This document shows, one piece after another, positions 1-54,407 of a stretch of 64,000 nt of DNA (the stretch's first letter is position 1; every line of letters starts with the position of its first letter). The stretch comes from Candidatus Staskawiczbacteria bacterium (GTDB taxonomy: Bacteria > Patescibacteriota > Minisyncoccia > Minisyncoccales > Staskawiczbacteraceae). The position numbers and the translations under genes were made by a program. A model generated the notes under the pieces. It was not told the DNA's origin and searched no databases. It saw only the letters and a list, made by a program, of their open reading frames with translations. Location of the stretch: the NCBI GenBank assembly GCA_903845295.1, contig CAIMWV010000027.1, forward strand, positions 8,819 through 72,818. The letters run 5' to 3'.

Positions 1-128
1 CTTTTTTCCGAGGAGAGAAAGCTGATACGCAGTTGCGGTTTGTGCGGTGCCACTGGGGCGCGGCAAGATAATCGCAACCCAATCCGTGCCGGCCGCAGAG
101 GCTGGCGCACAGAGGAAAGGGTGAAACA

Positions 129-1016
129 ATGGGAACCAAGAACGAGTCCAGACTGCTCCAGAATATGACCATGGCACAGCTCGAGGCGGAATTTGACAGG
201 GCAATGGCCGAAGCCTCTTTACCAAGAGTGAACACTTGCATCCACGCTGCGGTCAAGGCCGTGGATAATGAATCGCGGATTCGCGATGCGGAGACCGTTG
301 TAGCCAGCCTCCAATTCTTAATGGGCACTTACCGCCGCATAAGCACGCGGTTCGGCAACAGCGACCCGGAAGCGACCAAGAAACTGTTCCGCCAGATACG
401 GGTGATAATCATTAAGAATTACACCGGCGATTCTATCGCCCCAATGTGGCTGACCGTCCCCGTGCCAAGAGAGTCTATGATTAGCAGAAGAGACAAGTTT
501 ATCACAGCCTTTTTTGCCGAATACGGGTGTGTGGACCTGGATTCAAGAGACCTGGCCGGCTTTGAGGAATATCTGCGGAACCTGTGGCAGGAAAGGGAAA
601 AAAGCAAAGTCACTGGCCATGCGCCAGTTGAGCTGATAAAAACAACGATAAGCGCCGGCGCGTTCGGCTTGCTGACGCATTTCCTGGTTTTCGAGGCTAT
701 CCCGTACATTTTCAATGAGCTTCTTGCACAAAACCTTGCACTTGCTCGGCGTCATACAGCGAGGGCTGCGCTAACATTCGAGTTGATCAAGCCAATGCCT
801 CTGGCGCTACATCCGATAATCATCGAACCGGTAGATAAAGAGAAAATCGAGTTGCTCTGTGCTACTGTCCTCCGACTGGAAGGAGGGTGTAATCCCCACC
901 CGAGTGATGAGGTTTTTAAGGGCGCTCGTGCCTTGCTCGAGCTTCTCGGCCAATACACGCTGCGCGATTGGGAATTAGGACAGGCGTCAACCGCAGTTAC
1001 GCATTCAGGGCAGTAA
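129..1016 (+). CDS. hypothetical protein (GC-rich module)
   Basis: 295-aa track ORF; SD-like aggaaaggg upstream; own hairpin+T-run terminator at 1031-1058; no motif I recognise. Confidence 0.5.
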   Translation: MGTKNESRLLQNMTMAQLEAEFDRAMAEASLPRVNTCIHAAVKAVDNESRIRDAETVVASLQFLMGTYRRISTRFGNSDPEATKKLFRQIRVIIIKNYTGDSIAPMWLTVPVPRESMISRRDKFITAFFAEYGCVDLDSRDLAGFEEYLRNLWQEREKSKVTGHAPVELIKTTISAGAFGLLTHFLVFEAIPYIFNELLAQNLALARRHTARAALTFELIKPMPLALHPIIIEPVDKEKIELLCATVLRLEGGCNPHPSDEVFKGARALLELLGQYTLRDWELGQASTAVTHSGQ

Positions 1017-1030
1017 CAAGCCAGCAACAG

Positions 1031-1058
1031 GCTCCAGAGCAATTTCTGGAGCTTTTTT
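1031..1058 (+). terminator. intrinsic terminator
   Basis: gctccag-N8-ctggagc stem followed by tttttt. Confidence 0.6.
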
Positions 1059-1066
1059 GTTAGGTC

Positions 1067-1094
1067 TTGACTAATTTTAAATTTATAGTAGAAT
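1067..1094 (+). promoter_or_regulatory. sigma70-like promoter
   Basis: TTGACT-16 nt-TAGAAT inside an AT-rich spacer between two GC-rich ORFs. Confidence 0.5.
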
Positions 1095-1166
1095 ATAGGC
1101 ATTGTCAGGACAATGGGTTCTGGCAGTGTTAGCAGTGGTTTTTTACCATTTTGGAGGGGTTCTTCC

Positions 1167-2450
1167 ATGTTCCGAGCTATTGCAGTGATCCTGTCGTTTG
1201 TGCTTTCTGGCGCCATCTTGGCTCAAGAAGCCGAATCGCGCGCAGGAGGCGGCGGCTGGACGACGTTTACGGATCCGTCGGGAGTGTTGTCAATCAGCAT
1301 GGACAACTCGGTCAGGGAAGACTCCTGGCAGATGCTCCAGATTCAGTCCACCGAGGATCTGGGACTGGGTGGCATTTCATTGTGTAACGACCAGGCGGTT
1401 TGGTCCGCCCTGCAGATCTACGTTGGGCCGTGGAGTCAGACAGTCGATTTCCAGATGCCCGTCGGCGTAAGCGGGCCTGGATTCTACTTCCAGCTGTCAA
1501 CAGCCTCGGTAGGCGTAAGGACTGCAGCTTTTGAAATCAAACCGCAGCCTACAATTACTGACTTCTGGCCGCAAACGGCGGCCTCTGGTCAGGAAGTGAC
1601 CGTGTTCGGATATGGGTTCGACGCCTTCAACTGCGCCAACCTGTACGCCCAGGACGCCAGCAGTTACTATTACACGGGCGACATTCCAGCAACAATGTGG
1701 GATGATGGCACGATTCATTTTACTATGCCGCAGTCCGTGTTTGTCAGAAGCCAAACGAACGGTGCCCTGACCGGGCAGGTCCCGTTGGAAAGCCTTAAGG
1801 AAGTCTCACTACAGATGTACGCGGGCTCCGATGGTTGGTCATCGAATACGGTCAATATCAAGATCGTGTCCACCAGCCTGAACATATCGATGTATCAAAA
1901 TGCGGACGGCAGCAACATCTTCACCATGGGGCAAGATATCCTGCAGTTCGTGGTCGCCGGCGAAAACTTCGGCAACGCCTCCGTGAACCTGGTGAAAACC
2001 CAGGGTACGAAGTCAACTGTTCCGATTTGCACAATCGCCGGCGCGTATCAAAACTTCGAGCAGAGCAGCTGGAGCATCCCGACGGACATCGCGGCCGGCA
2101 CATATGTGCTGTCCATGGCCTTCGGAGATTCTGTTGTGACCACACCGGAGTTTTCCATCGTCGCTCCTTACGTGCCGCCGGAAATCGTGTATGTTCCGGT
2201 TCCGACCACGCCGACTTCATCTCCGTCAGAAGTTCACGACGTGACTGTGCAAATCAACAACAACCTGACTGGATTCTCAATTCGCAAAAGTGGAAAGAGA
2301 ATGGTTACATTCTTTAGTAAGGTCAAGGCTGGGACCGAGAACAACAAACGGCCGCAATATGTGTTGCCGGATGTCGAGATGATTCCGTATGTCGCTCCTC
2401 CGATAGTGAAGAACACTACCGTGGGAACGACTGTGGAATTCCAGTTCTAA
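1167..2450 (+). CDS. secreted protein with IPT/TIG-like Ig-fold repeats (GC-rich)
   Basis: Start moved to M19 of track ORF 1113..2450 (ggagggg SD upstream); signal peptide MFRAIAVILSFVLSGAILAQ; ITDFWPQTAASGQEVTVFGYGF resembles IPT/TIG pattern. Confidence 0.55.
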   Translation: MFRAIAVILSFVLSGAILAQEAESRAGGGGWTTFTDPSGVLSISMDNSVREDSWQMLQIQSTEDLGLGGISLCNDQAVWSALQIYVGPWSQTVDFQMPVGVSGPGFYFQLSTASVGVRTAAFEIKPQPTITDFWPQTAASGQEVTVFGYGFDAFNCANLYAQDASSYYYTGDIPATMWDDGTIHFTMPQSVFVRSQTNGALTGQVPLESLKEVSLQMYAGSDGWSSNTVNIKIVSTSLNISMYQNADGSNIFTMGQDILQFVVAGENFGNASVNLVKTQGTKSTVPICTIAGAYQNFEQSSWSIPTDIAAGTYVLSMAFGDSVVTTPEFSIVAPYVPPEIVYVPVPTTPTSSPSEVHDVTVQINNNLTGFSIRKSGKRMVTFFSKVKAGTENNKRPQYVLPDVEMIPYVAPPIVKNTTVGTTVEFQF

Positions 2451-2485
2451 TAGAAACAAGTAGGTGAGTTCATATTGAACTTGCA

Positions 2486-2515
2486 AAAGCCCCACATGTG
2501 TATAGGGGCTTTTAT
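2486..2515 (+). terminator. intrinsic terminator
   Basis: aaagcccc-N11-ggggcttt stem then T-rich tail. Confidence 0.55.
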
Positions 2516-2546
2516 ATTGCAATTTTTCTTGAAAAAATAATTGGTA

Positions 2547-2650
2547 TTGACCCTTCACCATAACAGTTGGGTTTTTATTTAAAAACGGATAAGCTTATAA
2601 TTTTTTATATTTACTCAATAAATAATACTGCCGGAATGGTGAAGGGTTGA
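2547..2650 (+). repeat. ~105-bp inverted-repeat element, copy A (MITE-like)
   Basis: Terminal arms ttgacccttcaccat / atggtgaagggttga (12 bp perfect); about 80% identical by eye to the reverse complement of 52834-52938. Confidence 0.75.
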
Positions 2651-2674
2651 CATAGTTTTTAATCGGAGTAATAT
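2647..2674 (+). promoter_or_regulatory. sigma70-like promoter formed by right end of element A
   Basis: TTGACA-16 nt-TAATAT; the -35 lies inside the element arm. Confidence 0.55.
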
Positions 2675-2703
2675 TAGAAAAAATATCCAAAAGTTGTAAA
2701 ATT

Positions 2704-2799
2704 ATGTTTGCAGTTATTAAGTATAAACCTAAGGAAAAATTTTACCAGAAAAACAAACAAGTGTTCACAGAAGTAGAAATTACTATGGTCTCTGGCTAA
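2704..2799 (+). CDS. possible 31-aa leader/small ORF (MFAVIKYKPKEKFYQKNKQVFTEVEITMVSG)
   Basis: ATG..TAA read by eye between promoter 2647-2674 and hairpin 2794-2833; no SD; AT-rich. Confidence 0.15.
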   Translation: MFAVIKYKPKEKFYQKNKQVFTEVEITMVSG

Positions 2800-2804
2800 C
2801 AATA

Positions 2805-2827
2805 GCCCCCGTTTTCGGGGGTTTTTG
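2805..2827 (+). terminator. intrinsic terminator / possible attenuator upstream of 2879..4138
   Basis: cccccg-tttt-cggggg stem plus ttttt; enclosed in outer pairing ggctaacaa/ttgttagcc (2794-2833). Confidence 0.6.
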
Positions 2828-2878
2828 TTAGCCAGAGAGTGCGTGGCTCTTTGGCAATTTAAGGTGAGGAGGTGTGGC

Positions 2879-4138
2879 ATGAAGGAGCCGATTGTTAACA
2901 CAGAAGGGGACCCGCCGTACCTGCAGGGCAAGAAGATGGTCGGGCCCTACGAGCGGCTGTTCTGGGATGCAGTGAAGAAAGAGAAGGAGCTGGTGGAGGA
3001 ATTCAATAAGAGGCACAAGATAAAGGACCCGTACGTGGGCATAGATGCCGCACACTTGCATCTTTGCCGGGCTTTTACTTTGGATACGAAGTATCTTGCG
3101 CACATCGAGACTTCGCCCATGGAAGCAGCCAAATTACCGTTGTCTGCCAAGCAGGACATGGTGGGCGATCTGCACCGTGGCGTGGCCTATACCGAAGAAA
3201 GTTTGACAGAACGGATGGCTTTTGCCGCAGAAATGCTGATTTTCTTTGGGGCGAGAAGGGCCTCAACGTGCATTGACGCAACTCCAGATATCGGGTTCCG
3301 CGCAATGCACGTGGCAATCAAGCTGAAAAAGAAGCTTGCCAAAGAGAAGAGGTTGAATTTGGCCATCGGTCCGACCCCCATTTTCGGACTTAGGGAAGAC
3401 CGCTGGGATGTGTTTGCCGAGGCGGCTCGCTTGCCTGAAGTCGATTTTCTTGCCGGCCTTCCTGAAAAAGACATGGTTGCTGATTTGAACAGAAAAGACG
3501 GCAGGATTGGCTTCCAGCGGCACATCAGGAAGGTGATGGATCTGGCCTGCGAAGTCGGCAAGGAAGTCCAGTTTCATCTTGACCAGATGAACATTGAACC
3601 CGAACGCGGAACAGAATTGCTGCTTGAAGCGTTGGAAGGATATGTTGAACAGCCGAAAGTTCCGAACCACAATCCCAAAGATCCGGTGACCTGGGTAATC
3701 CATATGATTTCGCCGTCATGTTACGATGAGCAGCGTTTTCGCAGGCTTGTTGACGGCCTTCTCAAACACAATGTCGGCGTGATTGTCTGTCCGACGGCGG
3801 GGCTATCCATGCGCCAGCACGCGGCAATGAAAACCCGCACCCACAACTGCATGGCCAGGGTCTTGGAACTTTGCGTGATGCGCGTGCCCGTCAAAATCGG
3901 GCCAGATAATATGGGCGATGCCTTTGTCCCGCAAACAGACGGCAATATGTTCGATGAAATTAAGCTGCTCGGCTACGCAATCAGGCATGCACAGACATCA
4001 TTCTATGCAAAACTCGCCATGGGGATTCCGCTCAATAATATTGACAGAGGGATAGCGGCTAACGTGCTCCGTCAAGACTATGAAATAAATTCCAACGACG
4101 ATCCTTCCTGGAAGCCGCCCATCAAGCTGAAAAGCTGA
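2879..4138 (+). CDS. metal-dependent amidohydrolase, cytosine deaminase (CodA)-like (GC-rich)
   Basis: Start at M19 of track ORF (gaggagg SD). HLHLCRAF, VQFHLDQ, VIVCPTAGLSM and GPDNMGDAFVPQTDGNMFDE resemble CodA-family metal-binding and active-site blocks. Confidence 0.65.
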   Translation: MKEPIVNTEGDPPYLQGKKMVGPYERLFWDAVKKEKELVEEFNKRHKIKDPYVGIDAAHLHLCRAFTLDTKYLAHIETSPMEAAKLPLSAKQDMVGDLHRGVAYTEESLTERMAFAAEMLIFFGARRASTCIDATPDIGFRAMHVAIKLKKKLAKEKRLNLAIGPTPIFGLREDRWDVFAEAARLPEVDFLAGLPEKDMVADLNRKDGRIGFQRHIRKVMDLACEVGKEVQFHLDQMNIEPERGTELLLEALEGYVEQPKVPNHNPKDPVTWVIHMISPSCYDEQRFRRLVDGLLKHNVGVIVCPTAGLSMRQHAAMKTRTHNCMARVLELCVMRVPVKIGPDNMGDAFVPQTDGNMFDEIKLLGYAIRHAQTSFYAKLAMGIPLNNIDRGIAANVLRQDYEINSNDDPSWKPPIKLKS

Positions 4139-4263
4139 AGCGCCAAGTAGCGGATTGGGCAAAATAGTTCCCAAAAAACCCAAAGGGTTCAGTGATGATA
4201 AGTTCAGGATTCAGGGACTGGCAAAGATATGCCCGATTAAACAAGGCAAAAATTTTGCAGTTC

Positions 4264-4292
4264 GGAAGCTCTTATGGGCTTCCATTTTTTTT
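4264..4292 (+). terminator. intrinsic terminator
   Basis: ggaagc-N8-gcttcc stem followed by tttttttt. Confidence 0.6.
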
Positions 4293-4364
4293 GGCAAAAA
4301 TTTGACAAAATCTAATGATAGACTAGTGTATACTTATGTAAGTTCCTTTACAGGAGAGTGCCTC

Positions 4365-4604
4365 ATGGCTGGTCAAAAATTGCCAGAACAAGAATCCCTC
4401 AACGCATTGGGCGTTTTTCACGAAGGCTTGGCCGTTGTCCAAGTTCAAGGAGAGTGGTTTCATATCCTGCAATCCGGCGAGCCGGCATATCCAGAGCGTT
4501 ACGAACGCGCTGAATACTTTCAAAATGGGGCAGCCTGGGTTAAGGTAAAAGGAGGGGGGTGGAAAAGGATAGATAAACACGGCAAAGAAATAAAGAACGA
4601 GTAG
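4365..4604 (+). CDS. small WG-repeat (KWG-like) protein (GC-rich)
   Basis: M71 of track ORF 4155..4604, preceded by caggagag; FHEGLAVVQVQGEWFHI and FQNGAAWVKVKGGGWKRIDKHGKEI match the WG-repeat pattern. The upstream part of the ORF is AT-rich promoter/terminator DNA. Confidence 0.5.
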   Translation: MAGQKLPEQESLNALGVFHEGLAVVQVQGEWFHILQSGEPAYPERYERAEYFQNGAAWVKVKGGGWKRIDKHGKEIKNE

Positions 4605-4664: not shown

Positions 4665-5423
4665 ATGCAAAAAGAATTTGAGTGGCTTTTAAAAGAAAAA
4701 TATAATAATAAGCCGACCAGGAATTTTTATAAAGACGTAGGAAGATTAAAGGCGGGCGAGCCTTTAGATTATGTAATCGGATTTACTGAGTTTTTGCGAT
4801 GTAAAATTGATTTATCTAAGAAACCTTTAATACCAAGGCCAGAAACAGAATACTGGGTAGGAGAAGTAATAAAAGAAATAAAAAAAGAAAATCATTCGTC
4901 GCGCGGCTCCTCAGGACAAAATTTGCGAATTTTGGATATGTTTGCCGGGTCAGGGTGTATTGGTTTGGCAGTTTTGAAGAATATTAAGAATAGCGAGGTT
5001 GACTTTACTGACAAAGCTAAAAATTGCCTGGAACAGATAAAGATTAATTTAAAAATAAATAAAATAAAATCTGGCAGTTATGCAATAATCCAATCTGATA
5101 TTTTTGACAGTGTAAAAGACAAATACGATTACATTTTTGCCAATCCGCCATATATCGCAATAAAAAGAAGAAATAAGATACAAAAGTCAGTTTTAAAATT
5201 TGAGCCGAAGACGGCTTTATTCGGCGGGAGCGACGGACTTTTTTATATCAGAAAATTTTTGAAAAATGCAAAAAAGCACCTGAACGAGAGCGGAGAAATC
5301 TTTATGGAGCTTGATTTTGTGCAAAAAAATGAAATAGAAGGGCTTACTAAAAAATACAAATACAAAAAATACGAATTTTGGAAAGACCAATTCGGAAAAT
5401 ATAGGTGTTTGGTTTGCGGATAA
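4665..5423 (+). CDS. prmC: release factor glutamine N5-methyltransferase
   Basis: DMFAGSGCIGLA SAM-binding block and FANPPYI (NPPY) catalytic motif. Confidence 0.85.
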   Translation: MQKEFEWLLKEKYNNKPTRNFYKDVGRLKAGEPLDYVIGFTEFLRCKIDLSKKPLIPRPETEYWVGEVIKEIKKENHSSRGSSGQNLRILDMFAGSGCIGLAVLKNIKNSEVDFTDKAKNCLEQIKINLKINKIKSGSYAIIQSDIFDSVKDKYDYIFANPPYIAIKRRNKIQKSVLKFEPKTALFGGSDGLFYIRKFLKNAKKHLNESGEIFMELDFVQKNEIEGLTKKYKYKKYEFWKDQFGKYRCLVCG

Positions 5424-5426
5424 TTC

Positions 5427-5441
5427 TTATTGTGCGACAAA
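5427..5441 (+). repeat. module-boundary motif TTATTGTGCGACAAA
   Basis: Starts 4 nt after prmC stop; 5425-5441 is 17/17 identical to 42196-42212; GC-rich pur island begins downstream. Confidence 0.8.
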
Positions 5442-5563: not shown

Positions 5564-6076
5564 ATGGATCAGGATTCTACGGCAACACCGACAAAGATAA
5601 TCGCCATCATTCTTGGGAGTAAGAATGACTGGCCGAAAGTCCAGCAGGTGATTTCCGGATACACTGCAGATAAAGTAAGGATTGTGGTACATGTAATAAG
5701 TTGCCACCGCAATCCATACGAGGTTGTTGCCTTCGCCGAAGGGTCTGATTATTTCAACGCCGTCATTTGTGTCGGCGGCAAAGCCTTTGCTTTGCCCGGC
5801 GTACTTGACGCGTTTATCCACGCAAATGGCAAAAAAACCCCTGTGATAGGGGTTGCGCTTGGCGAACCAGCTAGTGAAGCTCTCACGGCCGCCGTCTTGT
5901 CTATTAAACAGATTCCGGACCAGCCGGTCATTATGCCAGGACAAGATGTTTATCTGGGCCCTGAAGGTCTTGGGCTTGCGATCGAACGCGTCATCGCCAA
6001 CAGATTGCCCGAGCATAACGAAAGAAAAGAAAAACTCGCTGAACTCGAAATTTACAAGAATTTCAACGGAGATTAG
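5564..6076 (+). CDS. purE: PurE-family protein (AIR carboxylase / N5-CAIR mutase-like) (GC-rich)
   Basis: ILGSKNDW, SCHRNP, GGKAFALPGVLDA and PVIGVAL match conserved PurE blocks; agggagg SD. Confidence 0.75.
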   Translation: MDQDSTATPTKIIAIILGSKNDWPKVQQVISGYTADKVRIVVHVISCHRNPYEVVAFAEGSDYFNAVICVGGKAFALPGVLDAFIHANGKKTPVIGVALGEPASEALTAAVLSIKQIPDQPVIMPGQDVYLGPEGLGLAIERVIANRLPEHNERKEKLAELEIYKNFNGD

Positions 6077-6080
6077 GGGT

Positions 6081-6105
6081 TGCACCTTTCACTGTGAAGG
6101 GTGCA
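6081..6105 (+). promoter_or_regulatory. RNA/DNA hairpin between purE and purC
   Basis: tgcacctttca / tgaagggtgca, 11-bp stem (one G-U) with a 3-nt loop; contains the TGAAGGGTGC box. Confidence 0.5.
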
Positions 6106-6148
6106 TTCCAGATGAGTCCGCAACCGGAAAAAAGGAGGGCGAAAGAAA

Positions 6149-7048
6149 ATGGAATCTTCGGATGTCTTGATGGAAACCGACATACCCAGTCTCTCAGAAC
6201 CCCATCGCGGCAAAGCCCGCGATAATTACGATCTTGGTGACGGCAGGATGGCCATTGTCACCACTGACCGCCTCAGCGCCTTTGACGTGATAATGAATCA
6301 AGGAATTCCCGATAAGGGGAAAGTGCTGAATCAGCTCACGAAATTCTGGCTGACAAGGCCAAACCAAGTCGTTCCCAATCATTTACTGGGCACTGATCTG
6401 GCTCTCCTGCCGCCAGCATTTCAGAGGCCGGAGCTTGAAGGCCGGACAATGATTGTCCGCAAAGTGAAGAAGGTTTTTCCAGTCGAATGTGTTGTACGGG
6501 GATATATAATGGGCTCCGGCTGGGAAAGCTATCAAGCCGACGGCACGGTTTGCGGAATCAAGCTGCCTCCCGGCCTCAAGCTTTGCGACAAGTTGGAGAA
6601 AGCCATATTCACTCCGACAACCAAGGAAGAAAAAGGCCACGACAAGCCGATTACTTTCGAGCAGATGGTCGGCATAGTAGGGAAAGATGCTGCCGAAGCA
6701 ATGCGCTATGCCAGCATCAGGTTGTACGAAGAGACGCATGATTTCGCTTTGGAGCGCGGCATTATCATTGCCGACACGAAGTTCGAATTCGGGCTTCTTT
6801 TCGACGTGATCATGTTGATTGACGAGGTTTTGACCCCGGATTCCAGCCGGTTTTGGCCGAAAGAAAGCTGGGTGCCGGGCAAAAATCCGCCGAGTTTGGA
6901 TAAGCAGCCAGTCCGCGACTGGCTCAAGGCTACCGGATGGAACAAACAGCCGCCGCCGCCGGATTTGCCTCCCGAACTGGTCGCTTCTACTCAGAAAAAG
7001 TATTTGAGGATTTACGAGTTGCTTACCGGCCAATCCTTGGCTGAATAA
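6149..7048 (+). CDS. purC: phosphoribosylaminoimidazole-succinocarboxamide (SAICAR) synthase (GC-rich)
   Basis: GKARDNYD and IVTTDRLSAFDV signature blocks; IIIADTKFEFG; aaggaggg SD. Confidence 0.9.
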   Translation: MESSDVLMETDIPSLSEPHRGKARDNYDLGDGRMAIVTTDRLSAFDVIMNQGIPDKGKVLNQLTKFWLTRPNQVVPNHLLGTDLALLPPAFQRPELEGRTMIVRKVKKVFPVECVVRGYIMGSGWESYQADGTVCGIKLPPGLKLCDKLEKAIFTPTTKEEKGHDKPITFEQMVGIVGKDAAEAMRYASIRLYEETHDFALERGIIIADTKFEFGLLFDVIMLIDEVLTPDSSRFWPKESWVPGKNPPSLDKQPVRDWLKATGWNKQPPPPDLPPELVASTQKKYLRIYELLTGQSLAE

Positions 7049-7273
7049 GCGGCTCGGAAATTCTCGAATCTATGTCCTTATCACGTGCAAGCGGGGTGGG
7101 GACTTTTTGTTTGCAAAATTTAACATTTTTGTTAGTATCTATTTAGCATTGCTCTTTGAAAATCTCTGAAGGGATTTTAGAGCAACTGTTCAACCCGCGA
7201 GTTTTACGGGTGTGGGCGTCGCCTGGGGCGACATTCGACATTTTGAGGGGTCAAAAGCCCCGGGAGAGGGAAG

Positions 7274-8932
7274 ATGGGAAAAGCGGAAAAGACAGCCGAA
7301 TTAAGGACACTGGTGTTGGAAAATCCAGGCAAAATTCCTGTCAATATGGCTTTACCGGGCAATCCCCGGTACCAGCCCAAGTCACTCGTTGACTACTTCG
7401 GGTACGACAAGCTTTACCTTGGGCCGATACATGTCATCCTAGCAACGCTCAGGGTTCTGGGCAGGATTGCGGCGATACCGGCCCAGGACGCGGATTTGCT
7501 GGATGGCGCCTTGACCGCCAAGCTTCTCACGATCCGGACCGGCTTGGTTGACCAAGTCGAGCGAGGGCTGACCAACCATGATATCCGCGCGCTGGTGCTG
7601 ATAATGCAGTGGATGTCTCCGATGCAGATCGGGCGGTGGTGGCACAAGCCGAACACGAGCTACGATGATTTGGAATCCGGACGTGCCGTCCATTTCATCC
7701 AGGCGCATGAGAAGGTGGTGAGGAAACAGACCAACAAGGTCATCGAACATTTGGTCAAACTGGCCTACGATAACGCTGATGTCCGCTGCATTCTCAGGAC
7801 TCATCTGCAGGATGCACTGCCAGGCACCATGGGGTTTTGGTTCTCATGCATACTGGGCCAACTGCTTGAGAGCATTTCCGCCGCCAATGCTTCGGCAGGC
7901 GCTATCGTCGCTAAAATTTCCGGCGCAACCGGGAATAAGAATGCCCAGATCCATTTGGGCATCGAAGCTCGTTGCCAGGCAAAGCTCAAAATGAGCTTTG
8001 AAGAAGCTGTTCTGCAAGAACTCGGACAAAGTGCCGGGCTTAGCCGTCCGCTCAGGCCGGCGCTGGTCAGCAAGCAGATTCTTTTGCCCGGACCGCTTGA
8101 AAGATATCTTTCTGATATTGTCGCGTGTTCCGCGGCCTTGGCCCAGTTGGGCGACGACGGCAGGATACTCATGAGCAGCCGGATCGGAGAGTTCAGGGAA
8201 CCATTTGATCCGGGCCAGGCCGGCTCTTCGACAATGCTCAAAGTGAATCCATTCAGGCTGGAAAATCTTGTGGCAATGTGGAGGAAGAACGTCGGGGAGC
8301 TTGTGAAGGTGCAGATCAATGCCTTAAGTAACCTTCAGCGCGATCTGACAGGTAGCGCTGTCACCCGCGATTATCCCGCAATAGTGGTCAACCTCGCGGA
8401 ACAACTGCAGACGCTACTGCGCGCCAAAGATGACAAACCGCCCTTCATTGCCCGGCTGACGGTTGACAAAGACAGCTGCATGCGCAATCTGCTGGAGGCG
8501 GGCGATACTATATTGGCTGAGCCCCTTCAGATCGCCATCGAGATGGCAGGATATCCTCTTGACGGCTATGAACTGGTGAACCAGAAGGCGCGGTATATGA
8601 CCACAAAGGGAATCTCCCTTGGCGAAGCTGTGTGCCGTTTACTGGACGCAACTGCAAGACGCGATGGAGAGGAGGCTGCCATAGCCTTGCTAGAATCCGG
8701 CAAATTGAAGGACATGGCAATGCCTCTAGTCAAAAGGCCTGTTACGCTTGTGGAAGCCACGCAGAAGCTTTTGGTAGAGGAAGACCAATCCGCAGTTTGG
8801 GAAGCCATTCCGGCAGAGACGCGAGAGATGTTCAGACACCCGGAGAACTACATCGGCGACGCGCCGGCACAAGCAAGAAAAGTGGCAAAGCGGGCTGAGC
8901 AGTATCTCGCCGCAGAACCTGCGAGTAAGTAA
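7274..8932 (+). CDS. purB: adenylosuccinate lyase-like (fumarate lyase superfamily), long form (GC-rich)
   Basis: TNHDIRALV, RTHLQDALPGTMGF, GATGN and GSSTMLKVNPFRLEN resemble PurB/lyase-1 signatures. 552 aa is about 100 aa longer than typical PurB. Confidence 0.7.
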   Translation: MGKAEKTAELRTLVLENPGKIPVNMALPGNPRYQPKSLVDYFGYDKLYLGPIHVILATLRVLGRIAAIPAQDADLLDGALTAKLLTIRTGLVDQVERGLTNHDIRALVLIMQWMSPMQIGRWWHKPNTSYDDLESGRAVHFIQAHEKVVRKQTNKVIEHLVKLAYDNADVRCILRTHLQDALPGTMGFWFSCILGQLLESISAANASAGAIVAKISGATGNKNAQIHLGIEARCQAKLKMSFEEAVLQELGQSAGLSRPLRPALVSKQILLPGPLERYLSDIVACSAALAQLGDDGRILMSSRIGEFREPFDPGQAGSSTMLKVNPFRLENLVAMWRKNVGELVKVQINALSNLQRDLTGSAVTRDYPAIVVNLAEQLQTLLRAKDDKPPFIARLTVDKDSCMRNLLEAGDTILAEPLQIAIEMAGYPLDGYELVNQKARYMTTKGISLGEAVCRLLDATARRDGEEAAIALLESGKLKDMAMPLVKRPVTLVEATQKLLVEEDQSAVWEAIPAETREMFRHPENYIGDAPAQARKVAKRAEQYLAAEPASK

Positions 8933-43940: not shown

Positions 43941-43944
43941 ACAG

Positions 43945-43989: not shown

Positions 43990-44000
43990 AGGGCTGTAAA

Positions 44001-45113: not shown

Positions 45114-45139
45114 GATGTGACTCCTAAAATGCGGTTGTA

Positions 45140-45168
45140 ATTAAAGGTACAGAATTTAGCAGTATCAA
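45140..45168 (-). promoter_or_regulatory. sigma70-like promoter of DapA-like module
   Basis: Minus strand reads TTGATA-17 nt-TTTAAT. Confidence 0.5.
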
Positions 45169-45223
45169 CTGCCAAACGAATTTATGTTAGCCCTATTTCC
45201 ATTTTTTGTAAATATATTATTAA

Positions 45224-45238
45224 AGTGTCGCATAATAA
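45224..45238 (-). repeat. module-boundary motif variant (AGTGTCGCATAATAA)
   Basis: 2 nt after the dinB stop (minus strand). Confidence 0.7.
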
Positions 45239-45240
45239 TG

Positions 45241-46329
45241 TCACTTTACCATTTTTTCTAATCTTACGCCGATAAGGCGTATTAATTTGCTTTTTGGATT
45301 ACTCCTTTTATCCAAAAACGGCAAAATGAGCTTCAAAATTTCTATTTCAAACTTCTTTTCGTTATTTATATCAATCCCCTCTTTAAAAGTCTTAGAACTG
45401 GTTTTTGTCTCAAAATCAGCGAAGCGGACTGTAATTGTTACAGTTTTAAATTTAGAAAATCCGCTTTCTATAAATCTTTTAAAAACATTGCCGGATAATT
45501 CCTTCATCTTATCGTAAATAAGTACGGCGTTTAGCGTATTTTGATTAAACGTAGTTTGCTCCCCGATAGATTTTATCTCATGATATTCAGTAATCGGGTC
45601 GTCATCAATTCCCCTGGCTTTGTAATATATCTTCTCTCCCTGCTTGCCCAACATTTCTTTCAGTTCTTCTATGGAAGGTTTATTTAAATCTTCAATGGTT
45701 CGGATGCCTTTTTGATAAAAAATTTCGGCGGTCTTAGGGCCTATCCCGGGAAGCTCTCTTATGTCCAGCGGATTCAAAAATCTTTGCACGTCCTTTTCCA
45801 TAACTGAAAGCATTCCGTTAGGTTTATTGATTCCTGCTGCAATCTTAGAGACAAGCTTATTGGGACCGATTCCTACAGAACAGGTTATCTTTTCTTTTTT
45901 ATAAATTTCTTCCTTTATTTTTCTGCAAATGGCTTCTGCTTTTTTAAACGTTCCGGAAAAACTTAAATCAAAATAAAATTCATCTATGCTTGCCTGTTCC
46001 ACATCATCTGAATACTTTTTAATGATGTAAAGAATATTATCAGAAGCCTTGTTATATAACTCAAAATCTACAGGCAGGAAGATAACTCCTTCCTTGCATT
46101 GCTTTTTGGCTTCTTCTGACAGGCGCCATGCAAATGAAATGGGCATGGCTGAATGAATGCCATACTCCCTTGCTTTATAGTTTGCGGTGGATACAACTCC
46201 CCTGCCGATGCCATTGATTATCTCAGAACCTACAACAATGGGTTTTCCCGAAAAGCCAGGCGTGGCAGCCTCTTCAACTGAGGCGAAGAAAGCATCCATG
46301 TCCAGGTGCGCAATTATTCTTTTATCCAT
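45241..46329 (-). CDS. dinB: DNA polymerase IV
   Basis: IIAHLDMDAFFASVEE, Y-family palm/finger pattern, HhH GIGPKT. Confidence 0.9.
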   Translation of the reverse strand: MDKRIIAHLDMDAFFASVEEAATPGFSGKPIVVGSEIINGIGRGVVSTANYKAREYGIHSAMPISFAWRLSEEAKKQCKEGVIFLPVDFELYNKASDNILYIIKKYSDDVEQASIDEFYFDLSFSGTFKKAEAICRKIKEEIYKKEKITCSVGIGPNKLVSKIAAGINKPNGMLSVMEKDVQRFLNPLDIRELPGIGPKTAEIFYQKGIRTIEDLNKPSIEELKEMLGKQGEKIYYKARGIDDDPITEYHEIKSIGEQTTFNQNTLNAVLIYDKMKELSGNVFKRFIESGFSKFKTVTITVRFADFETKTSSKTFKEGIDINNEKKFEIEILKLILPFLDKRSNPKSKLIRLIGVRLEKMVK

Positions 46330-46335
46330 GTTTAA

Positions 46336-46344
46336 ATTCTACCA
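46336..46344 (-). promoter_or_regulatory. extended -10 promoter (TGgTAGAAT), leaderless geometry for dinB
   Basis: The -10 ends 6 nt before the A of the ATG. Confidence 0.45.
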
Positions 46345-46371
46345 CAAAAATACGCTCTGTATTCCTTCTTA

Positions 46372-46388
46372 TGTTGTCGCATAATGAA
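46372..46388 (-). repeat. module-boundary motif variant (TGTTGTCGCATAATGAA)
   Basis: Between the dinB start region and the terminator of the YfiH-like module. Confidence 0.7.
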
Positions 46389-46402
46389 AATATGCCGAAA
46401 TA

Positions 46403-46431
46403 TAAAAAAAATCGCATGTGGTTAATGCGAT
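46403..46431 (-). terminator. intrinsic terminator of YfiH-like module
   Basis: atcgcat-N7-atgcgat stem; T-run on the minus strand. Confidence 0.55.
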
Positions 46432-46459
46432 ATAGGTTCGGCAGTTGCCAAACCCTGTC

Positions 46460-47212
46460 TTATAAACAAGCGAGTGCCAAAAATCTTCCTTCGTGCCCGC
46501 AATTTTCAGCCCGGCGGTGCGAAGGAAAGATATATTCTTCGGATCCGGGAAGCCTCGAACAGCATGTGCAGATTTTGTCATCTGCAAAAATATTGCCCTC
46601 GGCTAATCCATATTCCTGAAGCTGTTTCCGCGCTTCTTCGCGTAGGTCCAATTTGTCATAACAGCATGGTCCGATGCCCGGGCCTATTGCCGCCACAATT
46701 CGGCTGGTAGATATTCCATGCTGGAGCATGTGTACTGCCTCCACTCCAATATGGATTATCTCAATCTCCAGGCTTTTCTTACTGACGTGCAGAAGGCAAC
46801 AAAACTGATAGTTGGGATCTGCCGATCCTAAGATTACCGGCAAACAATCTGCCGGGCAGAGCGTCAGTGGAATATTGATCATGGTCGTCGCTAAGCCATC
46901 GCATTTAAACGTTCCTCCGCCGGCAACGATATCTGTGATGTTTTTCTCGGTGACAACCTTGATCATGTTACCCACCCCGGGAATCATGTGAACCCGGTTT
47001 TTAGCTGAAATCCCGACCAGCTCGAAAAAAGCGGCTACGTTTCTATCAGCCGCAGCCTCATCTCCCGCCTCTTTAGCCCATCTGCGAGACATGTTCCCAA
47101 ACTGCTCGCCAGCCAAAACGGTTGAAAAAACGTTGAAAACAGGAAATTCTGAAAAAGACATCACCTGCTGCCCATGGTCATATTCTGCAAACGCCAAAGA
47201 TTTACTCTGCAT
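46460..47212 (-). CDS. YfiH/PgeF (DUF152, laccase-domain) family protein (GC-rich module)
   Basis: LTLCPADCLPVIL, CLLHVSKKSL and IGPGIGPCCY match the ADC.P / H / GP.I..C.Y pattern of the family; aaggag SD. Confidence 0.7.
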   Translation of the reverse strand: MQSKSLAFAEYDHGQQVMSFSEFPVFNVFSTVLAGEQFGNMSRRWAKEAGDEAAADRNVAAFFELVGISAKNRVHMIPGVGNMIKVVTEKNITDIVAGGGTFKCDGLATTMINIPLTLCPADCLPVILGSADPNYQFCCLLHVSKKSLEIEIIHIGVEAVHMLQHGISTSRIVAAIGPGIGPCCYDKLDLREEARKQLQEYGLAEGNIFADDKICTCCSRLPGSEEYIFPSHRRAENCGHEGRFLALACL

Positions 47213-47279
47213 AAATGCGCACTCCTTATTGCTTGATGGAAGGAACTAAATTCAGCGAGTTCGCCCGCTAAACATATAT

Positions 47280-47307
47280 ATTATATATGTTTATTACCTT
47301 TTGTCAA
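47280..47307 (-). promoter_or_regulatory. consensus sigma70 promoter of YfiH-like module
   Basis: Minus strand reads TTGACA-16 nt-TATAAT. Confidence 0.6.
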
Positions 47308-47346
47308 CGCTTAGTGTCTGTTGATTTGTTAGGAGGTATAATTAAA

Positions 47347-47407
47347 CTGTCGCACAATGGGTCGCACAATCGACAACAGTGTTGACACACTATTGTCGCC
47401 TAATCAA
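47347..47407 (-). repeat. cluster of boundary-motif copies (tandem CTGTCGCACAAT GGGTCGCACAAT, palindrome CGACAACAGTG-ttgaca-CACTATTGTCG, variant TATTGTCGCCTAATCAA)
   Basis: Read directly; four motif-related units within 61 nt. Confidence 0.75.
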
Positions 47408-47473
47408 TATTAAGCAACATTTTTGCAAAAAAGCCGCTTAATATTAAGACGCTGGCAAGTTTTCAGGTTTATA

Positions 47474-47488
47474 CTTGTCGCACAATTA
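47474..47488 (-). repeat. module-boundary motif (CTTGTCGCACAATTA)
   Basis: Core TTGTCGCACAAT exact. Confidence 0.75.
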
Positions 47489-47503
47489 ATTATCTAGTAT
47501 AAT
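47475..47503 (+). promoter_or_regulatory. promoter for LAGLIDADG gene using motif as -35
   Basis: TTGTCG-17 nt-TATAAT. Confidence 0.5.
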
Positions 47504-47531
47504 AAAAATATACAAACTTAAATCAAAAAAT

Positions 47532-48026
47532 ATGGCGAAAGAAAATTTTAATATTGTGACTTTGGTAAACAATGACGGATGCTTTGATTTGCAATTCAGG
47601 AAAGACACGAGGCACGAAAGGACCAACTCCCCCACTTACTACAGATGGAAGGCGCAATTTATAGTTACTTCCCCGAAAGATAATGTTAAAATTTTAGAAA
47701 AAATTAAAAATGAGATGGGCTGCGGCGAAGTAACCGTTTCAAAAGACCAGGCAAGGTTCTCAGTACAGAAAATCGGCGATATTGCGGAAAATATCGTGCC
47801 GTTCTTCAGAAAAAATTCTCTGTCGGATAAAAAGAAAAAAGATTTTGAGCTTTGGGCAAAAGGAGTCGAAGTAATCCAGAGGAATAAAGGAAAATATTTG
47901 GCCAGCTGGAAAAAGAATGACATATGCACCCTCATAGAAATCCACAAGTCATCAGCAAAATACAAAACGCATCCAAGAACTCCTAAGTGGTTAGACCTAG
48001 CAAAATCATTATCGAGAACAGCATAG
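47532..48026 (+). CDS. free-standing single-motif LAGLIDADG homing endonuclease
   Basis: LVNNDGCF (LAGLIDADG-like), IVPFFRKNSLSDKKKKDFELWAKGVEVI typical of the family; 164 aa. Confidence 0.7.
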   Translation: MAKENFNIVTLVNNDGCFDLQFRKDTRHERTNSPTYYRWKAQFIVTSPKDNVKILEKIKNEMGCGEVTVSKDQARFSVQKIGDIAENIVPFFRKNSLSDKKKKDFELWAKGVEVIQRNKGKYLASWKKNDICTLIEIHKSSAKYKTHPRTPKWLDLAKSLSRTA

Positions 48027-48076
48027 TTCGGAGCTCGCCCCGCTCAAATAAAAAATGTATAAAACGGGGTAAGAAT

Positions 48077-48133
48077 CGCCCAAGAATACCAAAATGGTTA
48101 GAAATGGCTAAAGTACTATCAAAAACAAATTAG
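48077..48133 (+). pseudogene. remnant C-terminus of a second LAGLIDADG gene
   Basis: Translates RPRIPKWLEMAKVLSKTN*, versus HPRTPKWLDLAKSLSRTA* at the end of 47532..48026. Confidence 0.6.
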
Positions 48134-48142
48134 TATCAACGA

Positions 48143-48169
48143 AAAAGCGAGGAACACCCTCGCTTTTTT
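48143..48169. terminator. bidirectional terminator
   Basis: aaaaagcgagg-aacac-cctcgctttttt. Confidence 0.65.
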
Positions 48170-48182
48170 ATATTATTTATAA

Positions 48183-48197
48183 TTTCACACAATAGAG
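48183..48197 (-). repeat. degenerate boundary motif (TTTCACACAATAGAG)
   Basis: 9/11 match to TGTCGCACAAT; 6 nt after the uppS stop. Confidence 0.35.
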
Positions 48198-52796: not shown

Positions 52797-52808
52797 ACTT
52801 ATACAAAC

Positions 52809-52837
52809 ATAATAACAAAATTATTTTTGTAAATCAA
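52809..52837 (-). promoter_or_regulatory. promoter for ctpA formed by end of element B
   Basis: Minus strand reads TTGATT-17 nt-TATTAT. Confidence 0.5.
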
Positions 52838-52938
52838 CCCTTCACCATTTCGTTAATATCGTTTATTGATTAAATATAAAAAGATCGTAAGCTTATACAT
52901 TCTTAAATAAAAATCCGACTTGTATGGTGAAGGGTCAA
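52834..52938 (-). repeat. ~105-bp inverted-repeat element, copy B
   Basis: Arms tcaacccttcaccat / atggtgaagggtcaa; the reverse complement aligns along its full length with 2547-2650. Confidence 0.75.
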
Positions 52939-52981
52939 TGCCAGTTAGTATCTATATTTTTAAAAATCGTCAAAATTTTGC

Positions 52982-53021
52982 AAAAAAAAGCGACTGTGTG
53001 CAAAACTTCACACACAGTCGC
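52982..53021 (-). terminator. intrinsic terminator of GC-rich secreted-protein gene
   Basis: 11-bp perfect stem gcgactgtgtg/cacacagtcgc; T-run on the minus strand. Confidence 0.65.
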
Positions 53022-53048
53022 GACGACCAATGGCCGCCCTTACTCTTG

Positions 53049-54320
53049 TTAGCGTGTGCCTACCGCGAACTCAAGTTTGCCTTCACGGGTCCACTTGAAC
53101 CCAATAACCGTACTTCGTGGGCCGATTCTTTCTGAGCCCACAATCCAGTCATTCGACAGGTAATCCTGGTATTTCGTCGGAACCGGGGCAACTACGTTCT
53201 GCCCCAACCGAATGGCGGTAATCCCCGGGAAGGGTGTTCGTCTTCCTCCCGAAGATACTGCCAGTCCAGGCCCCACGGACAGGATTATTCTGTTCGGCAT
53301 AGGCGGGACCACTATGGTTCCCACGTCTAGCACCGTGACATTAATATTGAACGGCGGAAGACTGCCAACGTTGATGACAATCTTCCCGGCACCGGAGATT
53401 GCGAAGGTGCCGGAAAACGTTCCGAACCCTCCACTATCCGAGCCTGCAACCATCGGCATACTGCTACCGTCCGAAGCAACCATGGTTGCAGTCGGTGTCG
53501 CAGTCGCAGGGACATAGTCAAACGTCAGATTGAACGGCTGCCCCGCGATTACATACTGCGGGCACACAACATTTGTCACACCCGTTGTGACTGTTGCTGG
53601 CGTCGTCGCCGCCGGAACCAAGATATTAATGCTGGCCGGCACCGGCATACTTCCAATCGTGACCTCCACCGTGTGCCTATCTGCCGTAGTGAAGGTCGGA
53701 GTGACCGTGAAGTTGCCCTTGCCCGTTCCTGTACCAGTAGCAGTGACAGCAACCTTCACCGAAGGCGCCTTATCAACGCTAATGTTCACGTCCAGCCCGG
53801 CATCGGCCGTGTAGTCAAACGTTACGGGAATGGGCTGGCTCAGAGCTATCGCCCCGAGCGTCCAATTATCGACAGTCGGTAACTTCACCGCTGGCGACGA
53901 CGGAGCCGCAACCACTTGGAACGCAGCTTTGTCAATCGCTGCGCTTCCATCGGCTGGAACGACGTGAATATGGTACTGACCAGCGGCCGCCGGAGTCCAA
54001 CTAGTTCGACCGACCGAGTAGCCAGCATCATCCGGCTGATCGTTCTTAAAGCTAGCAACGGTTTTGCCATCTCCAAGAACTTGCGGTACGTTCGAGCTGT
54101 TCAACACCGACATACTGAAGTCGGCGTCAAAGCGGACCGCGATCACGAACTGTGCACCCACCATGGGCGTGTCGCTCGCGATCGGAGCAACCGTCATCAG
54201 GTCTACCGCCCTACTGGCCGCCGGCGGCGCCTCGAACTTGACTTCCACGTCCAACGCGAACGCGGGAGCCATTACGCTCGCCACAATGGCGAACGCGCAG
54301 ATGTAAAACAACTTTCTCAT
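53049..54320 (-). CDS. secreted protein with repeated Ig-like/beta-sandwich segments (GC-rich)
   Basis: Start moved to M26 (gaggagg SD); signal peptide MRKLFYICAFAIVASVMAPAFA; T/V/A-rich beta repeats. Confidence 0.55.
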   Translation of the reverse strand: MRKLFYICAFAIVASVMAPAFALDVEVKFEAPPAASRAVDLMTVAPIASDTPMVGAQFVIAVRFDADFSMSVLNSSNVPQVLGDGKTVASFKNDQPDDAGYSVGRTSWTPAAAGQYHIHVVPADGSAAIDKAAFQVVAAPSSPAVKLPTVDNWTLGAIALSQPIPVTFDYTADAGLDVNISVDKAPSVKVAVTATGTGTGKGNFTVTPTFTTADRHTVEVTIGSMPVPASINILVPAATTPATVTTGVTNVVCPQYVIAGQPFNLTFDYVPATATPTATMVASDGSSMPMVAGSDSGGFGTFSGTFAISGAGKIVINVGSLPPFNINVTVLDVGTIVVPPMPNRIILSVGPGLAVSSGGRRTPFPGITAIRLGQNVVAPVPTKYQDYLSNDWIVGSERIGPRSTVIGFKWTREGKLEFAVGTR

Positions 54321-54407
54321 GACATCCTCCTCTCGCAAATCCCAAGGGACTCGAAGCCCCCTTCTGTCCATCTCGGGGGGCTCACAATGGCCCACCTCAC
54401 TACCATA

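Follow-up and report, generated by a model that had tools for sequence, protein, structure and literature searches.

How do genes of high GC content come to lie, singly or a few at a time, between the AT-rich genes of a small bacterial chromosome? The question is posed by a 64-kb stretch of DNA from an ultra-small groundwater bacterium, Candidatus Staskawiczbacteria (contig CAIMWV010000027.1; 'the window' below means this whole stretch). Patescibacteria, also known as the candidate phyla radiation (CPR), have tiny genomes and patchy metabolism, and horizontal gene transfer is thought to patch the gaps. We found that the GC-rich open reading frames (ORFs) of the window were acquired horizontally, as single genes and in a few cases short operons, and that they came from source DNA of about 50-57% GC to lie in the intergenic spacers of a resident chromosome of about 38% GC. 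The insertions concentrate at recurrent hot spots, the main one reaching from a xer recombinase gene to a LAGLIDADG endonuclease gene at the switch in GC skew, with a further site after gltX. With moderate confidence, we explain the locus as a set of foreign expression units that form a motif-delimited array at the xer hot spot.

GC-rich genes inserted into an AT-rich chromosome

The window has a GC content of 0.41. At a threshold of GC 0.48 or higher, 13 of its 62 called genes are GC-rich (0.49-0.57, with pgeF at 0.485), and the pooled coding GC is 0.528 in these 13 compared with 0.386 in the remaining genes (Table 1). GC at third codon positions (GC3) separates the two groups, with 0.50-0.72 in the GC-rich genes versus 0.24-0.45 in the rest; first and second positions are likewise raised, so the amino-acid content of the GC-rich genes differs too. 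A two-state hidden Markov model (HMM) assigned 19% of the window to GC-rich tracts whose borders lie about 25-110 nt from ORF ends, which means that GC-rich 5' untranslated regions (UTRs) and terminator hairpins slightly overhang the ORFs. The reported coincidence of GC-rich islands with individual ORFs is thereby borne out, with two corrections: 5564-8932, given as one ORF, is GC-rich as described but holds three genes (purE, purC and a purB-like gene), and the ORF at 31455-33065 is GC-rich in its 5' two thirds but not in the remainder. RNA genes were ruled out as the source of the GC peaks, since Rfam and ARAGORN searches of the window gave no rRNA and a single tRNA, leaving the islands as protein-coding. 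Deposited Staskawiczbacteria bin names carry numbers of about 32-43; reading these as GC%, the cargo at 49-57% GC falls outside the range of the clade.

With a contig that comes from a metagenome, and with breaks near 41573-41615 in several short assemblies, a chimeric assembly or binning artefact had to be weighed. Exact-protein look-ups recovered the same gene order, with GC-rich ORFs between AT-rich genes, in at least eight independent assemblies from several projects (ERZ1426813, ERZ1426812, ERZ1426568, ERZ1426835, ERZ1426843, ERZ1426811, ERZ18628513 and ERZ18628254), and the sister contig L002, at 90-97% nucleotide identity, carries the same GC-rich ORFs at the same sites. Synonymous divergence (dS) between the window and L002 is 0.20-0.24 for the cargo, inside the host-gene range of 0.08-0.43, and GC3 is unchanged, so the common ancestor already had these genes, which have since diverged in step with the backbone. 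Identical junctions in assemblies from different studies, kept in sister lineages with ordinary divergence, exclude the chimera that had been flagged as a risk; gene-scale switches with intact promoters and terminators are in any case not a typical chimera product, and we assign an artefact next to no probability. For the same pair of sequences, the ratio of nonsynonymous to synonymous divergence (dN/dS) is 0.14 for pgeF, 0.43 for the DHDPS-family gene and 0.44 for the filamin/PKD-like gene, compared with 0.00-0.14 for host genes, from which the cargo appears to be functional and under purifying selection, though less constrained than host genes. Four short contigs from different samples (L291-L294) begin at 41573 or 41615, directly 5' of hyp163, which may point to variation among strains or to reduced coverage at that unit's left-hand border.

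To place the insertions, eight lineages were compared (the window, L002, L095 and L296-L300). All share the backbone murD/L - ftsW - murG - gltX - small ORF - xer - {variable} - LAGLIDADG - uppS - L27 - pyrG - L9 - ctpB, and the content between xer and LAGLIDADG ranges from nothing (L298 and L300) through dinB alone (L095) to DHDPS, dinB and pgeF (the window and L002), three genes of which two have a GC of 0.50-0.51 (L299), five genes including LemA-TPM-TPM at GC 0.54-0.565 (L296), and three unrelated genes in place of DHDPS followed by dinB and pgeF (L297). L095, with amino-acid identities to the window of 69% for pyrG, 80% for uppS, 79% for LAGLIDADG and 70% for dinB, keeps pyrG-L27-uppS-LAGLIDADG-dinB-xer without pgeF, DHDPS or pgpA. 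L297 and L002 are 98.3% identical from dinB to pyrG, and sample ERZ27247850 yielded assemblies of both the DHDPS variant (contig L003) and that of L297; block content thus differs between very close strains in one habitat. Elsewhere on the backbone, an extra pgpA (GC 0.48) stands between uppS and LAGLIDADG in L002 and L297 and is missing from the window and L095, and the window has GNAT and hyp163 in the interval from gltX to the small ORF, where L296, L298 and L300 have neither. A second hot spot, between a 438-aa ORF and murI, has nothing in L296, a pair of GC-rich WG-repeat genes in L298 and the 31455-33806 block in the window. The site beside ctpB has the filamin/PKD-like gene in the window; in L298 a GC-rich gene for an FGGY kinase stands there, and in L300 a different gene.

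The absence of GC-rich ORFs from syntenic relatives, with other cargo at the same sites, upholds the horizontal acquisition proposed initially; absence from relatives' sites covers pgeF, DHDPS, hyp163/GNAT and the 31455-33806 block. As controls for empty sites, most close dinB relatives (57-76% identity) were of no use because of their unrelated gene order, the informative ones being L095 and L091. We considered whether the WG-repeat ORFs of the window and L298 are one mobile gene and rejected this, as they share 38% identity over 52 aa. Pfam and NCBIfam scans found no transposase among the window ORFs that they covered, a Pfam scan found no recombinase domain among the cargo ORFs that it covered, and the blocks have no terminal inverted repeats; the repeat at their boundaries is the same sequence at every site.

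Could the GC-rich genes instead be native and vertically inherited, with GC kept high by selection on expression or amino-acid content? The DHDPS-family gene is informative here. In 19 non-CPR genomes from at least 10 phyla, its homologue differs from the GC of its flanks by -0.01 to +0.07, compared with +0.155 in the window, and so follows genome GC; among Staskawiczbacteria, the L007 homologue is AT-adapted (GC 0.425, GC3 0.34) and that of L005, 54% identical, is again GC-rich (+0.12) in a different context. High GC is therefore not intrinsic to the gene. Native inheritance would suit the L005 homologue and the retention of the same GC3 in sister lineages after a dS of about 0.2, but not the genes' absence from syntenic relatives, the AT-adapted and genome-tracking homologues or the heterogeneous functions of the cargo, and we find it scarcely credible.

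Expression signals and source of the inserts

The median spacer is 144 nt long beside a GC-rich ORF and 19 nt long in the rest of the window (Mann-Whitney p = 6e-6). Pooled, the spacers beside GC-rich ORFs have a GC of 0.37 (mostly 0.31-0.42; host spacers 0.31), in line with the AT-rich spacers described initially, but the internal spacers of the pur block, at 0.47-0.51, depart from that description. Promoter-like sites exceed shuffled expectation 1.7- to 2.7-fold (27 vs 15.6, 20 vs 8.5 and 9 vs 3.3), and the strongest stand directly 5' of GC-rich ORFs. Upstream of pgeF, TTGACA-16-TATAAT (47307-47280) agrees with the consensus at 12 of 12 positions, and upstream of hyp163 TTGACA-17-TATAGT (41511-41539) does so at 11 of 12; the 427-aa ORF is preceded by a promoter-like TTGACT-16-TAGAAT at 1067-1094 and, further upstream, a terminator at 1029-1054. 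Hairpin and T-run terminators follow several GC-rich ORFs. Each of the three comparisons of an empty with a filled site places the AT-rich, promoter-bearing leader within the indel, and the inserted pgpA unit reads motif, strong terminator, TTGACT-16-TAATAT, GGAGG, ORF. As the initial annotation had it, the inserts are complete, stand-alone expression units, with promoters and terminators predicted from sequence: sometimes a terminator that would insulate the unit from the upstream host gene, then a sigma-70-type AT-rich promoter, a GC-rich 5' UTR, the ORF and a hairpin terminator. The accompanying claim that donor operons were not transferred finds no support, since purE-purC-purB with its GC-rich internal spacers and multi-gene blocks of relatives, such as LemA-TPM-TPM, show that operon fragments were transferred too.

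AT-rich spacers, together with the fact that the region's best consensus promoters precede foreign ORFs, could also mean that coding sequences alone were captured and that the host then added its own promoters and terminators. L087, a natively GC-rich contig of Patescibacteria type, offers a comparison: at a coding GC of about 0.53, its intergenic mean is 0.43 and several of its spacers lie at 0.33-0.35, so AT-rich, promoter-bearing spacers could have arrived with the genes. GC-rich ORFs separated by such spacers are the native look of this GC-rich member of the group, host 'formatting' of the inserts need not be invoked, and the promoters cannot be called specifically host-like, as had been suggested. 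Because the GC-rich 5' UTRs and terminators reach past the ORFs, the pur block keeps GC-rich internal spacers, and indels between recently diverged genomes include the AT-rich leader, we consider capture of coding sequences alone very unlikely; nor do we know of a mechanism for it.

Annotation of the cargo was only partly as first proposed. The purE, purC, purB-like and DHDPS-family aldolase calls hold, but the 'deaminase' is a weak amidohydrolase/cytosine-deaminase-like match (with none among sequences of solved structures), the 'HD hydrolase' reaches only E = 0.11, and the 'Ig-like' label stands on a sub-threshold filamin match. The pur genes cover exactly three consecutive purine steps (PurE, PurC and PurB, from aminoimidazole ribonucleotide, AIR, to its carboxamide derivative, AICAR), with no other gene of the pathway in the window, and one motif copy lies at their 5' side. 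All three are divergent, purE-like scoring 45 bits against a cut-off of 150 and purB-like 138 against 326 in curated families; enzymes so far under the cut-offs fit poorly sampled source lineages. The purB-like protein has an extended C-terminus (552 aa compared with about 475), and its gene stands alone in relatives.

The closest relatives of the DHDPS-family protein outside its own sub-lineage are from Staskawiczbacteria (53-54%), followed at 43-48% by Planctomycetota, Caldiserica, Armatimonadota, Desulfobacterales and Bathyarchaeia. The purB-like lyase has 39 detectable relatives, the best at 43-44%, and both examined contexts are of Patescibacteria type; in L087, whose PyrG is 60% identical to that of the window, the purB-like gene (GC 0.556) is compositionally native. 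On these matches, the donor pool for at least the DHDPS-like and purB-like genes was most likely other, GC-richer Patescibacteria. The nearest homologues of these two genes lie in Patescibacteria-type contigs, but at only 43-54% identity; since no nearest homologue exceeds 54% and the donors are unsampled, the donor clade can be named only provisionally, which counts against the reading favoured here. In the available part of the text of Gios et al. (2025, mSystems, PMC12455944), horizontal transfer accounts for up to 13% of Patescibacteria genome length, and 83% of the detected transfers are within the phylum.

The boundary motif and the xer locus

The 11-mer ATTGTGCGACA (extended form TTATTGTGCGACAA) is the only complex over-represented 11-mer in the window, with eight exact copies against about 0.03 expected (estimated as 128,000 positions / 4^11) and seven more with one mismatch. 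The stretch from 40.9 to 47.5 kb contains ten of these 15 copies and has one at each gene boundary, and the motif occurs in 7 of 20 island-adjacent spacers versus 2 of 41 others (Fisher p = 0.004). It reads on the + strand left of about 42.5 kb and on the - strand to the right whatever the gene strand (xer and LAGLIDADG run opposite to it), and its orientation flips likewise in L296-L300.

Motif copies also track the insertions. In L095, the empty spacers dinB-xer and LAGLIDADG-dinB have one copy each, and in the window, L002, L095, L296, L297 and L299 blocks lie between direct copies (Table 1); with empty spacers holding one copy and filled sites bracketed, there is one copy more than there are blocks. 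At 47348-47486, scar-like copies have accumulated in tandem. Conservation of sequence from one lineage to another ends at the motif: downstream of xer it stops a few bases past TGTCGCACAAT (at most the following A-run), and homology between L002 and L297 breaks at L002 9877|9878, the first base of the motif. Such endpoints fit the footprint that would be expected if an incoming motif recombined with a chromosomal one. In L297, at about 5040-5085 after the dinB stop, the motif appears to be split by a perfect 20-nt palindrome (ATTG-CCTGCCTGCCGGCAGGCAGG-TGAGACAAT), and the split after ATTG might mark a breakpoint inside it. In L298 (18094-18200), a motif copy borders immediately on the end of what by inspection resembles a tRNA gene, next to the FGGY kinase gene (GC 0.526) inserted between ctpB and mraY, a further case of insertion associated with the motif.

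The recombinase at the centre of this array shares 95% identity with a protein listed at NCBI under Candidatus Staskawiczbacteria and is 81-98% identical across more than 120 Staskawiczbacteria-type cluster representatives. Profile scores are about 229 bits for XerD and 224 for XerC, compared with 105 for the IntI family TIGR02249 (cut-off 265), and together these figures identify a core housekeeping Xer. GC skew changes sign at xer in 5 of 5 long loci, and the cumulative G-C maximum of the window is at 43053; with genes converging there, xer lies at the putative replication terminus, with the reservation that skew is confounded with the orientation of the genes. A 28-nt site, TGTCGCAAAATGTAGGTAAAGCGACGTT, stands about 25 nt ahead of xer; it is nearly invariant in seven lineages (including L002 and L296-L300) and can be parsed as TGTCGCAAAAT-GTAGGT-AAAGCGACGTT, the left arm being a motif variant. 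To the left of the site is the promoter of xer (TTGACA-17-TATTAT, 42821-42849), to its right the start of the gene; the site has outer inverted repeats of 5-6 nt (GTCGC ... GCGAC) around a 14-nt A/T-rich core. We regard it as a candidate dif site of a single-Xer system or, alternatively, a candidate autoregulatory operator of xer. In single-recombinase systems, dif can adjoin the xer gene (PMC5357621). Inspection against the dif sites of E. coli and Bacillus, difSL and difH gave no convincing match, and downstream of xer a 28-nt arrangement, ATTGTGCGACA-N6-CTTCGCTCAGT, is kept in only 4 of 8 lineages. The free-standing LAGLIDADG gene is the conserved distal border of the variable region in all eight lineages, and its product is 95% identical in L002 (dN/dS 0.08), compared with the 79% in L095; that it sits in no recognisable intron or intein suggests a domesticated function.

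What put the blocks there? Judging from these alignments, site-specific integration at the xer-proximal hot spot is a serious though tentative candidate. A motif on incoming DNA would recombine with a chromosomal copy and the block would enter, with the housekeeping Xer as the obvious candidate enzyme (its involvement is putative); successive insertions would then build the array, much as integrative mobile elements exploiting Xer (IMEX) do with dif-like sites that keep one conserved arm. The motif-free islands (1-4604, 31455-33806 and 53049-54395) would have come by other routes, probably, for example, illegitimate recombination after DNA uptake. The cassette mechanism inferred in the initial annotation is therefore partly supported, by 11-nt direct repeats, in the xer-proximal cluster (40.9-48.2 kb) and on the 5' side of purE, but finds no support in these three islands. 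A stronger version, which we rate as possible and hold still more loosely, is an undescribed gene-capture platform in which promoter-bearing, mostly foreign GC-rich cassettes would integrate at ATTGTGCGACA copies around the terminus xer, probably through Xer and less likely through the adjacent LAGLIDADG endonuclease or another enzyme, giving two convergent arrays that turn over between strains within one habitat.

Several observations weigh against integration at the motif. An 11-nt site alone is too small for a tyrosine recombinase, and the dispersed copies have no conserved second arm or central region, so a full Xer-type site of 28-31 bp is not demonstrated. The motif brackets AT-rich core-like genes as well (xer, LAGLIDADG, dinB and GNAT), is also present within coding sequence at 25688 and 61518, precedes dinB in three lineages and, reverse-complemented, is the -35 box of LAGLIDADG (TTGTCG-17-TATAAT); its AT-rich core neighbours, coding copies and skew-linked orientation fit a polar chromosomal or regulatory motif equally well. 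In the L002/L297 block swap, identity falls from 98.3% to 90% on the xer side, as is characteristic of homologous exchange via the neighbouring genes. For pgpA, a clean motif is present at just one end of the insertion. Neither excised nor circular forms of a cassette were observed, hyp163 was in the same context in 15 of 15 contigs, with no second one, and a comparison of the 7.3-kb array DNA with plasmids and phages matched only the recombinase catalytic region. The three motif-free islands add to this list. In addition, searches of viral contigs with the motif 14-mer gave single chance matches only, and no shared motif was found at the second hot spot. Given its place ahead of dinB, the motif may also be considered as a LexA/SOS box, though it looks unlike those of GAAC-N4-GTTC type.

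These points give room to an ordinary transfer hot spot without cassette machinery, where rare illegitimate entries (by competence, for instance) spread by homologous recombination through xer, LAGLIDADG and gltX, and the 11-mer is a binding arm for Xer or another protein, a polar site like the FtsK-orienting polar sequences (KOPS) or Ter, an operator, or a -35 box; lying by chance where conserved segments end, it would mark the block borders. That transfer concentrates in hot spots flanked by core genes is general knowledge, and other hot spots here work without the motif. Such a hot spot would account for the flip of the motif exactly at the skew switch irrespective of gene strand, for its presence beside xer in all lineages, in the LAGLIDADG promoter and ahead of dinB, and for the mosaic of identities (98.3% vs 90% around the swapped block, and 90.5% vs 97.4% between the window and L002). 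It leaves unexplained why each insertion brings an extra 11-mer in the same orientation, from one in each empty L095 spacer to blocks plus one at filled sites, and why scar-like copies stand in tandem at 47348-47486. We see it as a somewhat unlikely, though by no means negligible, account, and continue to favour foreign expression units in a motif-delimited array.

Neighbouring features and relation to known systems

Some further features of the window deserve mention. The filamin/PKD-like ORF evolves fast, with 54% amino-acid identity to the copy in the sister contig L002. An element of about 104 nt at 2547-2650 recurs in reverse orientation at 52834-52938, and in L002 at about 1560-1620; it has 16-nt terminal inverted repeats (TTGACCCTTCACCATA ... 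reverse complement, 3 mismatches) and an AT-rich centre. Each of the two window copies is directly downstream of a GC-rich secreted Ig-like ORF, and the two proteins are not detectably related, for which reason we rejected the idea that they are paralogues. The element, found only in this sub-lineage, could be a miniature inverted-repeat transposable element or a structured RNA (fold z = -3.0). At 15978-18458 is an 826-aa homologue of TraG/VirD4-type coupling proteins (T4SS-DNA_transf, TrwB) with host-like GC, which may be relevant to DNA exchange in this organism. Two tandem ORFs 3' of an HlyD-like gene (12150-13421, 423 aa; 13414-14658, 414 aa) look like tandem paralogues, their DNA repeats being about 71% identical. 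A 56-nt direct repeat, 93% identical (28675-28730 and 29705-29760), duplicates the 3' end of mraY and brackets a radical-SAM/SPASM gene (28781-29656) that is the most AT-rich in the window (GC 0.317) and lies directly before tRNA-Ala (29804-29875); the arrangement resembles the outcome of an integration with duplication of a gene end, in this case with AT-rich and not GC-rich cargo.

Table 1. Coordinates of GC-rich genes, motif copies and features of the xer locus (window positions unless a relative is named).
Feature	Position	Strand	Remarks
GC-rich tracts (two-state HMM)	1-2436, 2805-4160, 5703-8925, 31947-33067, 33508-33820, 41551-42175, 43894-45089, 46488-47114, 52990-54404		
hyp295	129-1016	+	GC-rich gene; GC 0.526, GC3 0.60; no family match; tract starts about 90 nt left of the window start
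427-aa ORF	1167-2450	+	GC-rich gene; GC 0.537; probably secreted; no family match
419-aa ORF	2879-4138	+	GC-rich gene; amidohydrolase/cytosine-deaminase-like, far under family cut-offs
79-aa WG-repeat ORF	4365-4604	+	GC-rich gene (moderately)
Exact motif copy	5429-5439	+	Between host methyltransferase stop and purE
pur block	5564-8932	+	
purE-like	5564-6076	+	GC-rich gene
purC	6149-7048	+	GC-rich gene
purB-like lyase	7274-8932	+	GC-rich gene
Insertion block	31455-33806		
hyp536	31455-33065	-	GC-rich gene; GC 0.49
h98	33122-33418	-	
ORF	33567-33806		GC-rich gene; in tract 33508-33820
Motif array, ATT(G/A/T)TGCGACA	40888-48193		Units GNAT, hyp163, ORF117, xer, DHDPS, dinB, pgeF, LAGLIDADG
Motif copies	40888, 41450, 42200	+	
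Motif copies	42864, 43927, 45226, 46375, 47348, 47360, 47394, 47476, 48183	-	47394 and 48183 with 2 mismatches
Motif pair, GNAT	40888/41450		
hyp163	41631-42122	+	GC-rich gene; GC 0.567, GC3 0.72
Motif pair, hyp163	41450/42200		On either side of the gene
28-nt site	42864-42891	+	
XerD-like tyrosine recombinase	42915-43889	+	Core gene at the GC-skew switch
DHDPS-family gene	44001-45113	-	GC-rich gene; GC 0.544
Motif pair, DHDPS	45226/43927		On either side of the gene
pgeF/YfiH-like	46460-47212	-	GC-rich gene; GC 0.485
Motif pair, pgeF	47348, 47360, 47476/46375		On either side of the gene
LAGLIDADG endonuclease	47532-48026	+	Free-standing
Filamin/PKD-like secreted ORF	53049-54320	-	GC-rich gene; GC 0.57; no motif copy nearby
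Motif pair, L296 five-gene block	11043/15051		
Motif copies, L299 blocks	10974, 12455, 16507, 16534		
Motif pair, L297 h190	1191/1970		

Transferred genes and islands are likewise reported for Patescibacteria by Gios et al. (PMC12455944), at up to 13% of genome length compared with the 19% of the window that is compositionally foreign; the available part of that text mentions no recurrent xer-adjacent array or boundary motif, and the sites described here are resolved to the nucleotide by comparing empty and filled loci. Our full-text literature search for Patescibacteria with integron and attC returned resistome surveys only. Horizontal transfer into Patescibacteria is known, and a terminus-located, motif-delimited, fast-turnover array beside a core xer appears to be undescribed.

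A parallel may be drawn with IMEX such as CTX-phi, VGJ-phi and TLC-phi of Vibrio, the gonococcal genetic island and Legionella LME-1, which sit at the terminus beside the dimer-resolution system, have no integrase of their own, form tandem arrays and keep one conserved recombinase arm with a divergent second (PMC5357621; PMC9765430). They carry dif mimics arrayed at dif (PMC5357621), and the dif of Legionella was discovered through such an element (PMC9765430). IMEX are phages or large islands, however, whereas the units here are 0.6-4 kb with one to a few cellular genes and their own promoter; the junctions in the window have no complete dif-like site, and further insertions are seen at copies of the motif elsewhere, behind gltX, uppS and the methyltransferase gene rather than at the candidate dif.

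Integrons resemble the locus in having an array of mostly single-gene units beside a tyrosine recombinase, repeats in one orientation, and cargo that varies between close relatives. Here, however, the recombinase is a conserved XerD-like housekeeping protein rather than IntI, the repeat is an 11-mer with unconserved flanks and without the imperfect inverted repeats of attC, the units carry their own promoters and terminators where attC cassettes are mostly promoterless, and the recombinase gene has an array on each side, the two being oppositely oriented. The pdif modules of Acinetobacter plasmids are also small gene modules bounded by Xer sites and thought to be moved by the host Xer, but in the available part of that source (PMC7399989) their sites are complete 28-bp inverted ones on plasmids, unlike the direct 11-nt chromosomal copies of the window. 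In hot spots flanked by core genes, too, a few intergenic sites take most of the variable DNA, with lineage-specific cargo; normally these have no boundary repeat that multiplies with the number of blocks.

For the biology of these organisms, the locus gives nucleotide-resolution examples of single genes arriving as ready-to-express units, and of a three-step purine module from AIR to AICAR. If the motif is architectural or regulatory, the locus is still a clean example of hot-spot gene turnover at the terminus of a streamlined genome. If it is a recombination site, it would provide a searchable signature for mobile cargo across CPR metagenomes, a route to locating the dif/Xer system of the group, and a candidate tool site for organisms still without genetic tools. 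A capture platform, if true, would be an integron- or IMEX-like system in ultra-small symbionts, and could explain how streamlined genomes regain metabolic steps.

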